From Escherichia coli (GTDB taxonomy: Bacteria; Pseudomonadota; Gammaproteobacteria; Enterobacterales; Enterobacteriaceae), in the NCBI RefSeq assembly GCF_011045215.1, contig NZ_CP049201.1: 64,000 bases of DNA; one strand, 5' to 3'. Made by a program: the position numbers and the translations under genes. The notes beneath the pieces were generated by a model, which saw nothing but the letters and a program-made list of their open reading frames with translations, was not told where the DNA came from and did no database searches. Below are positions 49,845 to 53,483 of this stretch, one piece after another. Every line of letters starts with the position of its first letter. Position 1 is the first letter of the stretch.

Positions 49845-50411
49845 ATGAAGAATATACCAGTTTCAGCGAAATTATTGCTGATGTTAATGGGGGCTGTTTT
49901 CTTCTTCGGAATACAGTCTGCCATTGCAGTGGATATTAATATAAAAATTACTGGGGAAATTTATATTCCTCCGTGCAAAATTAACGGTAATGACGAAGAA
50001 ATACAGGTGTCTTTTGGTAATATGTCGCTGTATGACGTTGACGGACATAAAAATGCTGTTACCAAAAATATTACGGTAAACTGTGATTATTATCAGGGAA
50101 CACCTTATATCCGGATGGACGGAATGGTGTTATCTGGTGCCGGAGATAATGTTCTTAAGACAACTGGAGCCAATTCGTCAACGCTGGGGGTTGCCTTGTA
50201 TCAGGGGAGTGATGTGAACAACTCTTATCCTTTGAGGATCGGTGCCGGAGATCAGGGTAAGTATGGATATAAAATTACACGAGGGCTGACAGGGCAGAAT
50301 ACAGCGACGGGGCAGTTTACTTTTACAGCGGTACCATGGAAGCTGGGTGGCGGAACATTGAATGCCGGAAAATTCAGTGCGGTAGCAACAATGAGTATCA
50401 GTTATTTATAA
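49845..50411 (+). CDS. Fimbrial minor subunit (PapE/PapF-like), low GC
   Basis: 188 aa, signal peptide, conserved Cys pair, pilin C-terminal strand FSAVATMSISYL. Confidence 0.6.
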   Translation: MKNIPVSAKLLLMLMGAVFFFGIQSAIAVDINIKITGEIYIPPCKINGNDEEIQVSFGNMSLYDVDGHKNAVTKNITVNCDYYQGTPYIRMDGMVLSGAGDNVLKTTGANSSTLGVALYQGSDVNNSYPLRIGAGDQGKYGYKITRGLTGQNTATGQFTFTAVPWKLGGGTLNAGKFSAVATMSISYL

Positions 50412-50433
50412 AATAAATCTGATTTTGTAGGAA

Positions 50434-50469
50434 AAAAGATGAGATGGCTGGAAAAGATGAGATGGCTGG
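50434..50469. repeat. Perfect 18-bp tandem duplication (AAAAGATGAGATGGCTGG x2)
   Basis: Read directly; lies in the intergenic spacer between the minor pilin gene and the first adhesin-like gene. Confidence 0.8.
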
Positions 50470-50578
50470 AGTGTGTTAGTTTTGTTTAGACTGGTTATGA
50501 TGAATATCGGTGGGCAATGAAAAAAGTACACAGCGTTGTCGTGAGTGGAATGATACCAATAAGCAAGGCAATTAACTA

Positions 50579-51538
50579 ATGATTAAGTTTGTGATTAGTT
50601 TTCTGTTTTTTGTTCTTTATTCGGTAAGTGCTTATGGAGCTGATTGTGCGGTTATATATAGTCTCCCATTAACTCTTACGGGGGCACAAAGTGGTCTGAG
50701 CTGGAGTGGAAGCGTAGGCGGACATGGCGTTGGGAGTTATATTTCTACTTGTCCGAGACCTTATAAATATGATTACAGATATAATATCGTTTCGAAAAAC
50801 GCAGTTTGCACAAATCTGGCTGATAGTAAGAATTATATCGTAACAGTTAGTACTATTGGTGCGAGTGTGGATACTGGTGCTATGGAGCGATATCCTGATT
50901 TATATAGTGGTAATGAATCATTTGAAGTATGGGGGAAATCATATCCTGCTGGTGGAATTCCCCTTGCAGGAAGTGCTCAAATTTATGGTTTTTATACAAC
51001 AAGAATTACTATGGATATAAGCTCGTTGCCTGTCGGTTCTTTTTCTTGTGTGATAAAAAATACTCATGGGGCTTATGGTAGCGAGACCAATAACCCGGAG
51101 AGTGGTAGTAAGTTAATTTTTAACAGAGCTCTCTCTTTAGGAGCATCAGGTTGGGCTACAGGAAGAGTGAATGTGTCTGTTAATAGTGCGTGTCGTATAA
51201 ATAATGATCAAGGCTCGCTTGATGTAAGGCATGATAATATTGTCTCTGGTTCAGATAGTATAAAGGTTGTGTCAGTGCCGATTATCTGTAATAAAAATAG
51301 TAGTATTGTTGTTCGATTGAGTGGAGGGATGGTTCAAAATGATGGCGTATTAATAAATGTCGGCGAGTCGAAAAGTTTAGTAAGTGTTTCGGCATATGAT
51401 GGTGGTGAGGGTGCTGCAAGGTTGTCCATGGATGTGGCAAGCAATGTAAATACAAGCGTTTTTGTTAGAAGTAAACTGAAAGCTAAAGGGGGGGGGAGGC
51501 AATCAGGAAATATAATTATGAGTGTTACCTATAATTAA
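50579..51538 (+). CDS. Fimbrial adhesin-like two-domain subunit, paralog 1
   Basis: 319 aa; signal peptide; PapG-like size; pilin-type C-terminal strand (IIMSVTYN); low-GC gene. Confidence 0.55.
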   Translation: MIKFVISFLFFVLYSVSAYGADCAVIYSLPLTLTGAQSGLSWSGSVGGHGVGSYISTCPRPYKYDYRYNIVSKNAVCTNLADSKNYIVTVSTIGASVDTGAMERYPDLYSGNESFEVWGKSYPAGGIPLAGSAQIYGFYTTRITMDISSLPVGSFSCVIKNTHGAYGSETNNPESGSKLIFNRALSLGASGWATGRVNVSVNSACRINNDQGSLDVRHDNIVSGSDSIKVVSVPIICNKNSSIVVRLSGGMVQNDGVLINVGESKSLVSVSAYDGGEGAARLSMDVASNVNTSVFVRSKLKAKGGGRQSGNIIMSVTYN

Positions 51539-51576
51539 AAAATAAGATGTGTCCAGGCTTGCTCAGGGGGGGGAGA

Positions 51577-52506
51577 ATGCTTAAGTTTGCAGGAAGTATC
51601 ATATTATTGATTATTTCATTATCTTGTTCGGCGGACTGGAATGTCAGAGGGATGAGTAATACTATAACATCGATAAATGCTTCTGTTAATTCTGATGCAT
51701 CTATATCGATAGCATTGAGCGGTTCAAGATATCCCAGTAATTCATTTAAGTGTAATGTTTCTTCTGGGGAGTATATTTATAACACATGGAGATATCTGGT
51801 ATGGTTTCTTGAAGATATAAATATAGATGGTAAAAATATTTCTTTTACTGCGCCAGATAAATTATATGATTCAGTTGGTGGTAACTTTGATGTTGAAAAG
51901 TGGCAGTGGGTGAATAATGGAAAATCTCTGATTTTAGTAGCCAGAAACACCAGTGGAGGCATAAGTGATAAAAGAATGTGTTGGGAAGGTGAATCATATA
52001 GCTTTAATACTAATCTTGTCGGGAATGCTGTTGGGATTACATTACCGGCAGGAGAACATTATGTTAGTTTTGGTTTGAGGGTAATGCGAATTCAGGCATC
52101 TGAGGATGCGAATTTTGTATATAATTTGGCTATTGCAAATTATTTTCGTTCTCCTGTAACACTAATAAAGGCACCAGTAAACATTGCTTCATACTGTATC
52201 AGCAAAAGCGGAGATTTACTTACTTTAAATTATGGAGCGTTCTCTGCTGGTTCGGCTAATGGAAGAGTATCTTCAGCAAAATTTGATTATGAATGTAACC
52301 TGGATACCGCCCTGCCAAAGGTGATTTTACAGGGGAGTGAAGTGTCATTGTGTGATGGATTGACAGCAAAACTTACGGCACATACAGAACGGGCGAATAA
52401 CTATAATTTCAGGACAATTTTTACGAGCACATTATATGGTACGGCGTCATCTTCTTGTGTGGGAAAATTTTCAAAGGTTGTGGTGGCGACATTAACCCCT
52501 CCATAA
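51577..52506 (+). CDS. Fimbrial adhesin-like two-domain subunit, paralog 2
   Basis: ~309 aa from the ATG at 51577; signal peptide; C-terminus VVVATLTPP; low GC. Confidence 0.5.
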   Translation: MLKFAGSIILLIISLSCSADWNVRGMSNTITSINASVNSDASISIALSGSRYPSNSFKCNVSSGEYIYNTWRYLVWFLEDINIDGKNISFTAPDKLYDSVGGNFDVEKWQWVNNGKSLILVARNTSGGISDKRMCWEGESYSFNTNLVGNAVGITLPAGEHYVSFGLRVMRIQASEDANFVYNLAIANYFRSPVTLIKAPVNIASYCISKSGDLLTLNYGAFSAGSANGRVSSAKFDYECNLDTALPKVILQGSEVSLCDGLTAKLTAHTERANNYNFRTIFTSTLYGTASSSCVGKFSKVVVATLTPP

Positions 52507-52538
52507 TATGAAGTGTTATACTTTCGGGTTGGTGATAT

Positions 52539-53483
52539 ATGAAAAATTGGATGCTGATATTGTTATTTTGTCCTTGGTATGTTTTTTCTCAGGGCTATAT
52601 AGAGTCTATTGTTGTAGACGGTGCCAGAACAGATGCAAAGGTTGAAGGTGACGGAGTATATAATATTTCTTATGCCCATGGTGCTGGTGGTTATCATTTC
52701 CAGATATTCCACAGTGATTGTACGGGGTCTCTGGCAATGTCATATAGTTATATATCACTTCCACAGAATGTCACTATTAATAACAATAGTTATAATATTA
52801 ATTGGCATGCATCTTTTGGTGAGGTTGTGACTGTTGGTCAGCGGGTTATTGTTTTTTCTCTCAAACCTGATCAACATTTGAGAATTTGTGCATTTGTTGG
52901 TGGGGAGGGGCGCGATACTCCTGCGGGACCGATTAGCGTCAGTGGAATAATTAACTTTAAGGAGCTTCTGACACCCGGTGTGATTCGTTTACCTCCGGTA
53001 ACTTATTTTGTAGGTAATGTCTTTGCTAATACGAAATCAGAAGCGTTAGATCTTTTGATAAATTATTCTGACAAAGGAAATCCAACGGTTTTATATCCAA
53101 ATGGTGATGGTGAATTAATAATTCCAGAACAGTGTAGAATTTTTGATGGTTCCGATAAGATAAGTATACCTATGGAGGATGTACCATTAGGTACAAAAAA
53201 ATCGAAAAGAGTTTTACACACTGTAGAGTGCAATTCAGAGAGTGCGGCATTAAAATTTATAAATTTCCGGTTGTATGGGCAGGGAGGGCAGGAAATACAG
53301 GCATCTCCAGGAAGGCAGGAATTAAAAATTAAAATGAGCAATGGGTCCAGTGCGAATATCAGAATAATGCCATTGCCAAATGGAAAGATAGTGGAGTTAC
53401 CAATAGATGTTACTCTGGATACTACAAAAGGAAAATCTGGTGATACAGAAGGAAGTGCTATTTTGCAATATACACTAAATTGA
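52539..53483 (+). CDS. Fimbrial adhesin-like two-domain subunit, paralog 3
   Basis: 314 aa; signal peptide; C-terminal strand SAILQYTLN; low GC. Confidence 0.5.
   Translation: MKNWMLILLFCPWYVFSQGYIESIVVDGARTDAKVEGDGVYNISYAHGAGGYHFQIFHSDCTGSLAMSYSYISLPQNVTINNNSYNINWHASFGEVVTVGQRVIVFSLKPDQHLRICAFVGGEGRDTPAGPISVSGIINFKELLTPGVIRLPPVTYFVGNVFANTKSEALDLLINYSDKGNPTVLYPNGDGELIIPEQCRIFDGSDKISIPMEDVPLGTKKSKRVLHTVECNSESAALKFINFRLYGQGGQEIQASPGRQELKIKMSNGSSANIRIMPLPNGKIVELPIDVTLDTTKGKSGDTEGSAILQYTLN

Follow-up and report, generated by a model that had tools for sequence, protein, structure and literature searches.

The 64,000-nucleotide stretch of Escherichia coli DNA analysed here (assembly GCF_011045215.1, contig NZ_CP049201.1; hereafter, the window) carries a chaperone-usher operon that, judged from its sequence, is of the P-pilus type (pi family) and a genuine relative of Pap. 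In our assessment, the genes at the tip end of this operon are probably those of a single conserved PapF-like adaptor and, behind it, of three adhesins that share the PapG fold but have diverged deeply. The PapF-like tip adaptor has 188 amino acids (49845..50411, plus strand), and behind it, on the same strand, lie the genes of three secreted putative tip adhesins: T1 (319 amino acids, 50579..51538), T2 (309 amino acids, 51577..52506) and T3 (314 amino acids, 52539..53483), which we assign to G-type families 1, 2 and 3, respectively. The T2 open reading frame (ORF) is open from an upstream ATG at 51547, which would give 319 amino acids, and a GGAGA stands directly 5' of the ATG at 51577. A preliminary description of the operon had placed the four genes at 49845-53483, in agreement with the ORF list. 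That T1, T2 and T3 are G-type tip adhesins we hold with high confidence, and the evidence for this is presented first.

All three proteins have a signal peptide and a pilin-like C-terminus with a Gly at position -14, as read from the sequences, so the earlier portrayal of secreted proteins of about 310-320 amino acids with pilin-type ends stands. The C-terminal end is -TLTPP in T2 and -MILP in PapG-III, and in alignments T1, T2 and T3 all have a C-x31-32-CN motif where the C-terminal domain begins. Sequence and profile searches of NCBIfam, Pfam and the PDB assigned none of the three to a significant family; the possibility that they are a known standard set of tip subunits, on which the preliminary description would have fallen, thus found no backing there. 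There was no Pfam match to PapG for T1, T2, T3 or the members of their families, and the PDB profile searches did not return PapG at E<=10. T1 has a weak match to MrpH_C (PF24223) at residues 205-304, with an E-value of 0.0057 that is below significance; within its family, one of seven members matches this model at E<=0.001 and six of seven at E<=0.1. The match is absent for T2 and T3 in Pfam, and one T2-family member has it as a precomputed match. Relatives of the three proteins were named "hypothetical protein" in every case seen, and homologs are scarce: 5-7 clusters per protein among 5.8e9 proteins (six for T1), while an exhaustive HMMER scan of 1.84e9 representatives with the T3 profile gave 11 matches.

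Structure prediction, which had been proposed as a check on the preliminary description, gave PapG-like lectin-plus-pilin proteins for T2 and T3. The AlphaFold2 (AF2) model of T2 has a mean predicted local distance difference test score (pLDDT) of 84.5 and a predicted template modelling score (pTM) of 0.72, with two beta domains after a low-confidence signal peptide; that of T3 has a pLDDT of 81 and a pTM of 0.67, with two beta-rich domains, again after a low-confidence signal peptide. In Foldseek searches, the T2 model found full-length PapG first (7lhg_G, E 4e-8), followed by the PapG receptor-binding domain and CupB6. The T3 model likewise found PapG first (7lhg_G, E 1e-8; 6cd2_B, E 1.6e-8 with a template modelling score, TM, of 0.58 over the full length) and superposed on the PapG lectin domain with a TM of 0.53-0.55. 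Both models match the isolated PapG receptor-binding domain with a Foldseek probability of 1.0, and the best structural matches of T3 in AFDB50 are SfpG, PapG_C-domain, PrfG, PixG and MrpH_C proteins. Going by these models, the PapG fold is present although membership of the PapG sequence family is not, and T2 and T3 would have lectin-like and pilin-like domains of the PapG/FimH design; T1 would share it through its sequence homology to T3 only. In the T2 and T3 models, the first strands of the N-terminal domain are seen from residues 19-21 on, straight after the signal peptide, which argues against a free N-terminal extension in the predicted structures. It is conceivable that the three proteins are not tip adhesins, being instead fibrillum subunits in place of the missing PapE or secreted proteins unrelated to the pilus, and the searches without a significant Pfam, NCBIfam or PDB sequence match would fit such a case. 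We nevertheless regard it as highly improbable, given the resemblance of the models to full-length PapG and to SfpG, PrfG and PixG, the lack of an N-terminal donor strand in the T2 and T3 models, so that these proteins could not polymerise within a fibre, and the position of the orthologs, which are always the last structural genes of pap-like operons.

The term "paralogous", used for the three genes in the preliminary description, applies at a remote level and is almost invisible to BLASTP, which among T1, T2 and T3 saw nothing besides T1-T3 (E 0.02, 19% identity); pairwise identities are 13-20%. With shallow alignments, hhalign initially gave weak C-terminal similarity, and clear homology followed once the T3 alignment had been enriched from the exhaustive scan. 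With the enriched alignments, T1 and T3 match with 95% probability (E 3e-8) over 281 columns, which is the full length, and T2 and T3 with 92.6% probability (E 5e-7) over 258 columns. The three proteins are very distant paralogs of one PapG-fold design.

The 188-amino-acid "minor pilin" of the preliminary description is, on sequence comparison, a PapF ortholog. It matches PDB PapF with an E-value of 2.5e-31, is 43% identical to UTI89 PapF and scores E 7e-38 against PapF versus 2e-8 against PapE; its donor strand, VDINIKITGEIYIPPC, is homologous to that of PapF, DVQINIRGNVYIPPC, and its N-terminal peptide is VDINIKITGEIYIPP. Thus, papF has been retained and not replaced. No PapE gene is present, as there is just a 147-base-pair (bp) spacer between the PapK-like and PapF-like genes. 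The proposal that papE-papF-papG had been replaced as a block therefore holds in part: PapK and PapF orthologs are kept, papE is absent and papG is substituted by T1, T2 and T3. Two kinds of relatives of the operon were seen, namely plf-like clusters (locus L004) and operons of E. coli and Salmonella with the gene order A-H-C-D-J-K-FKBP-F-YuaE-G, for which we found no description in the literature, as far as searched. In the latter group, the K proteins are 69-75% and the F proteins 74-78% identical to those of the window, and the papF-like ortholog lies 5' of the adhesin gene, usually with the small YuaE gene between them. Between operons whose adhesin types are unrelated, the N-terminal extension, or donor strand, of the PapF-like protein hardly varies, and the arrangement is most naturally read as a conserved adaptor that takes interchangeable heads; by analogy with PapF, its donor strand would presumably complete the pilin domains of the adhesins.

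The relatives also bear on how the three adhesin genes came together. Each of the three types occurs alone, as the last structural gene, in another operon: T1-type in L007 (63% identity), T2-type in L008, L009 and L016 (49-50% identity) and T3-type in L010 and L011 (46% identity), with the orthologs overall 45-65% identical to the window proteins. Since each type is the sole adhesin elsewhere, three pre-existing cassettes would have accreted here, as opposed to a local duplication, and the cassette acquisition proposed in the preliminary description finds in this a better basis than in GC content. DNA homology to the relatives ends at the end of papK (~49701-49707), resumes at ~49820, 24 bp before the papF-like start, and ends again at ~50414-50434. 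The spacer between papF and T1, which corresponds to the YuaE position of the relatives, contains two copies of an 18-bp sequence (AAAAGATGAGATGGCTGG) as a perfect tandem duplication at 50434-50469, which may be a recombination or deletion scar. In L016, the intact T2-type gene is followed by a fossil of the C-terminal part of an L003-type adhesin (7186-7334); this fragment looks like the remnant of a cassette replacement and is direct evidence of turnover at the adhesin position.

GC content was the original argument for acquisition. It drops at ~49.7 kb from 0.51-0.58 to 0.35-0.41, and at third codon positions (GC3) it is 0.50-0.64 for the genes H through K, 0.40 for the 188-amino-acid pilin and 0.27-0.28 for T1, T2 and T3, so that the lower GC of the tip genes, as first described, is borne out. 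In UTI89, however, papE, papF and papG have a GC3 of 0.33-0.39 versus 0.53-0.55 in papC, papJ and papK, and the sister operon L008 has the same gradient. Low GC is thus common to the tip genes of this family and weak evidence for acquisition, and we rejected it as a mark of a recent foreign cassette, even if the window shows a stronger contrast than the canonical operon.

As a rule, the pap-like loci that were examined have a single adhesin gene, such loci being UTI89 pap, L004, L002, L003, L007-L011, L013 and L016, as well as those of Edwardsiella, Citrobacter, Enterobacter and Pantoea. The claim that three candidate two-domain adhesins in one operon are unusual fits most of the relatives; it has to be qualified by Salmonella enterica (L005/L006), with three intact adhesin genes, one T1-type and two MrpH_C genes, and by Buttiauxella agrestis (L022, 10609-12963), in which two tandem 370-amino-acid adhesin paralogs follow papF. 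The latter two are 71% identical, and by their sequences they are a recent duplication, in contrast to the window. A "second adhesin" of Buttiauxella sp. B2 was rejected, as it is FolD. In Edwardsiella (L020/L021, 7538-10561), FKBP and papF come after the adhesin gene. We found no literature description of several G or tip adhesins in one operon. Thus, the tandem array is uncommon and apparently undescribed, and represents a variation on a well-known system.

The sister operons carry further genes around the adaptor and the adhesin. A gene for a periplasmic-type isomerase of 424-447 amino acids (FKBP_N/FKBP_C) lies between papK and papF, a gene for a YuaE protein of ~130 amino acids (PF27278) between papF and the adhesin gene, and a DsbA gene is often directly downstream. 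These loci are L005/L006 7207-9466; L008 7509-9830 and 11938-12576; L010 772-3095; L013 9518-11129; L016 3181-5469; and L020/L021 8645-11289. Distant loci, from a metagenome and from Edwardsiella, retain this association in a shuffled gene order. FKBP, YuaE and DsbA may be dedicated adhesin-folding helpers; a literature search on FKBP genes in such fimbrial operons found nothing relevant. The window contains no FKBP, YuaE or DsbA gene or remnant, the FKBP and YuaE slots being empty.

By analogy with the PapDG-PapC-PapF assembly, the PapD-like chaperone would cap the incomplete pilin domain of each adhesin, and the chaperone-adhesin complex would open the usher, making the adhesin the first and most distal subunit. 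The donor strand of the PapF-like adaptor would then complete the adhesin, to be followed by the PapK-like subunit, the PapA-like rod and the PapH-like terminator, with no PapE fibrillum. As an adhesin cannot donate a strand and can only start a pilus, there would be one adhesin per pilus, and an expressing cell would consequently make a mixture of T1-, T2- and T3-headed pili, broadening its receptor range. The N-terminal domains are almost unrelated in sequence, which makes varied receptor specificity plausible. In origin, the adhesin cassettes would have been added by recombination downstream of a universal adaptor, with T3 often lost to frameshifts in this population. That T1, T2 and T3 are co-displayed as alternative tips is plausible, and we see the case for and against it as about evenly balanced. 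More tentatively, and as a possibility that we would not yet favour, the operon could be a multi-headed system in which a PapF-type subunit is a universal socket and almost unrelated, exchangeable lectin heads accumulate in tandem through recombination, like phage tail-fibre cassettes. If true, a phase-ON cell would show mixed pili with three specificities, the array would be trimmed or extended with host range, and the operon would depart from the norm of a single tip adhesin per operon.

The T1, T2 and T3 ORFs are intact in four assemblies (the window, bovine strain C5 and the draft assemblies L014 and L015), among which the ratio of nonsynonymous to synonymous substitution rates (dN/dS) is 0.19-0.66, calculated from few substitutions. 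Several observations weigh against the proposed adaptor with three PapG-fold heads. The alignments under the T2 and T3 models were shallow (7-8 sequences), and hhalign of the families versus PapG-III gave E-values of 6e-4 to 0.04 at probabilities of 1-28%. FKBP, YuaE and DsbA accompany the adhesin genes of the relatives and are without counterpart in the window, so that, if they are needed for folding, assembly in the window may be impaired or dependent on host factors. Moreover, T3 has the highest dN/dS of the three (0.66), from which it follows that not all three are maintained everywhere. It is also disrupted in many carrier contigs: a 201-amino-acid form with an out-of-frame N-terminus was found on 51 contigs, besides a split form of 136+167 amino acids and forms of 263 and 248 amino acids (P0057, P0059/P0060, P0061 and P0062; 40 of the ~111 cluster members were read). 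T1 and T2, by contrast, are mostly full length.

The main rival to the three-headed interpretation sees the distal copies as by-products of cassette exchange that are undergoing decay. A single adhesin would work, probably T1, beside the adaptor, or T2, and the others would be leftovers on their way to being lost. The disruptions and the dN/dS of T3 agree with this, as do the decayed fragment after the working adhesin gene in L016 and the single adhesin of most related operons. However, all three genes are intact in the four assemblies named above, and the T3 substitutions between isolates are not randomly spread: read from the alignment, they concentrate at residues 34-98, in the N-terminal domain. 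Furthermore, the T3-type protein is the sole adhesin elsewhere, implying a functional fold, and Salmonella keeps three intact genes. On balance, we consider a single working adhesin rather unlikely.

The operon appears to be regulated in the manner of pap. Two GATC sites exactly 102 bp apart, at 43145 and 43247, lie in an AT-rich region (43145..43250) upstream of the papB-like gene, with flanks AAACGATCTTTT and AAAAGATCGTTTT; this is the spacing of GATC-I and GATC-II in pap, which form the Dam/Lrp phase switch. By analogy, the pair looks like a Pap-type Dam/Lrp phase-variation switch and suggests phase variation of the entire operon. In pap, papI is divergent and upstream; its counterpart here is the most 3' gene of the operon, and an IS66 element abuts the regulatory region of the window. 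Promoter-like and terminator-like matches across the operon do not exceed chance expectation. The spacers are short, 38 bp between T1 and T2 and 32 bp between T2 and T3, and both features count in favour of three functional genes. In the ribosome-binding region of T2, a G-rich tract (51563-51576; G8) varies between isolates, CAGGGGGGGGAGA versus ATGGGGGTGGGGGGGA; only these two variants were seen, compared at L014 ~9020-9038 and L015 ~8106-8124. From its sequence, the tract could be slippage-prone and affect T2 translation. The three adhesins might then be expressed alternately, through slippage at this tract or other translational control, with one head at a time. Both the difference in the G8 tract between isolates and the apparent Pap-type GATC switch would suit such a mode. 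Against it, the tract variants differ by substitutions as well and not in length alone, nothing comparable is found 5' of T1 or T3, and neither recombinase genes nor invertible or shufflon-type inverted repeats above chance were found. Alternate expression thus seems improbable to us.

The remainder of the operon places it in the pi family through a PapC-type usher, a PapD-type chaperone and PapH, PapJ, PapK and PapF homologs in pap order, and all of its genes are co-oriented (43.3-54.0 kb, plus strand). It begins with a gene for a PapB/FocB-family regulator (43292..43603; ORF, 45% identity to UTI89 PapB), whose strain C5 RefSeq counterpart is annotated as PapB/FocB family and whose L014 ortholog matches PF03333. 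Next come the PapA-like major pilin (43714..44274; ORF, 54% identity to UTI89 PapA) and the PapH-like terminator/anchor subunit (44357..44941; 60% identity to UTI89 PapH). The PapC-type usher (45053..47629; 69.6% identity to UTI89 PapC) probably has its true start at ~45080, as annotated in strain C5, and its ortholog matches the Pfam models PapC_N, Usher and PapC_C. The PapD-type periplasmic chaperone (47759..48490) matches PDB PapD with an E-value of 5e-129 and is ~87% identical to the PDB PapD chain, counted from the alignment, and 79% identical to UTI89 PapD. It is followed by the PapJ homolog (48517..49113; 38% identity to UTI89 PapJ, PF14855 on the ortholog), which is 87-88% identical to PapJ of related operons, and the PapK-like adaptor pilin (49110..49697; PDB PapK E 3e-45, 50% identity to UTI89 PapK). 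The PDB matches and UTI89 identities thus confirm the papA, papH, papC, papD, papJ and papK homologs recognised at the outset. The PapA-like pilin differs from that of strain C5 at 47 of 561 bases (dN/dS 0.74) and is identical in L014 and L015, and the neighbouring genes differ by 0-19 bases only, which suggests allelic replacement of this antigenic rod subunit.

Downstream of the tip, an ORF of 96 amino acids from the ORF list overlaps the T3 stop codon (53480..53770, plus strand). Its conservation in L014 and L015 is 97%, a paralog with 30% identity lies at L001 20574-20834 (C5 plasmid; ~58273-58533 of the window), and the family search gave no match; a relationship to PapI was considered and set aside, as the similarity to a PapI-like protein is marginal. 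The operon ends at its 3' side with a gene for a PapI/FaeA-family regulator (53807..54022, plus strand), annotated as FaeA/PapI family in C5 and with PF04703 on its orthologs, which is 55-57% identical to the equivalent gene in related operons.

Compared with the P fimbriae of uropathogenic E. coli (pap/prs, PapA-H-C-D-J-K-E-F-G), the operon has the same order of B, A, H, C, D, J, K and F, the two-domain PapG fold in the T2 and T3 models, the GATC pair 102 bp apart upstream of papB and tip genes of lower GC than the assembly genes. It differs in having no PapE and three G-type genes instead of one, besides the papI position and the IS66 element already mentioned. As the sequences of T1, T2 and T3 do not resemble PapG significantly, binding of galabiose should not be taken for granted. 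With MrpH of MR/P fimbriae, and with SfpG and PixG, the likeness consists in the weak MrpH_C matches in the C-terminal pilin domain of the T1 family and in the AFDB matches of T3; MrpH is shorter and binds zinc (PMC7444556).

The PL (plf) fimbriae are encoded on IncF plasmids of avian pathogenic and extraintestinal pathogenic E. coli (APEC/ExPEC), and their PlfG adhesins fall into classes I-V (Habouria et al., 10.1101/2021.07.20.453171; PMC13068334). Their nine structural genes comprise PlfE and only one PlfG, identity between the PlfG classes is 44-77%, and a cluster is recognised as plf by a PlfD more than 94% identical to that of QT598 together with the same gene organisation (10.1101/2021.07.20.453171). 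In the same work, PL hybrids assembled heterologous PapG alleles, the G adhesins being swappable between Plf and Pap (10.1101/2021.07.20.453171), so that G adhesins are interchangeable in this fimbrial group. Within the pi fimbriae, the operon falls into the PL subgroup. The window chaperone, usher and PapJ are 96.7%, 82% and 88% identical to those of the plf-like cluster L004, which adjoins RepFIB and an integrase, as published for plf, whereas for K and F the identity reaches only 35-39%. Between the L004 G protein and T1, T2 or T3, the best BLAST E-value is 0.014 over 124 amino acids; judged via this protein, the three do not belong to PlfG classes I-V, and their accessions are absent from the published PlfG list (10.1101/2021.07.20.453171). 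The window further differs from plf in its flanks, with IS66 upstream and shf-capU-virK downstream, and in having no E gene and three G genes. The closest relatives of its tip end are the A-H-C-D-J-K-FKBP-F-YuaE-G operons, two of which (L010 and L016) share the downstream FaeA, shf and capU genes. These mostly have one adhesin together with FKBP, YuaE and often DsbA, whereas the window has three adhesin types and none of the latter genes.

The tip module is rare. It was found in one of 5426 complete E. coli genomes, on plasmid A of the bovine strain C5 (98.7% identity), and in addition in the two draft assemblies L014 and L015, while the backbone DNA is 83-85% identical to ~320 other E. coli records with different tips. 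Directly 5' of the operon lies an ISEc8 (IS66-family) element (40242-42575), and the shf-capU-virK module lies 3' of it. The region 54200-64000 of the window, with shf-capU-virK, DUF4056, AraC-like, 3'-phosphoadenosine-5'-phosphosulfate (PAPS)-reductase and IbrB-like genes, recurs at 98-99.5% identity on IncF plasmids from bovine and ovine E. coli and from E. fergusonii; in pCeylon31IncF, it adjoins a YadA-type adhesin and an autotransporter with a heptosyltransferase, not this operon. The exact window proteins are present on a 5.41-Mb contig, so the locus may be chromosomal in the source strain; a look-up of loci with the exact T3 sequence of the window gave no entry.

The host and tissue to which a pilus attaches are determined by its tip adhesin, and such adhesins are targets for vaccines and anti-adhesion drugs, as in the case of FimH, PapG and PlfG. 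The operon encodes three uncharacterised PapG-fold families, labelled "hypothetical protein" and found mainly in E. coli, and its nearest relatives on plasmids are from isolates of cows and sheep. The embedded FKBP, YuaE and DsbA genes of the sister operons hint at unstudied helpers of adhesin folding, and the combination of a conserved adaptor with swappable heads offers a natural scaffold for tests of donor-strand compatibility. If several heads are indeed assembled from one operon, operon-based adhesin typing would underestimate receptor range, and the question would be raised of how the usher chooses among competing chaperone-adhesin complexes.

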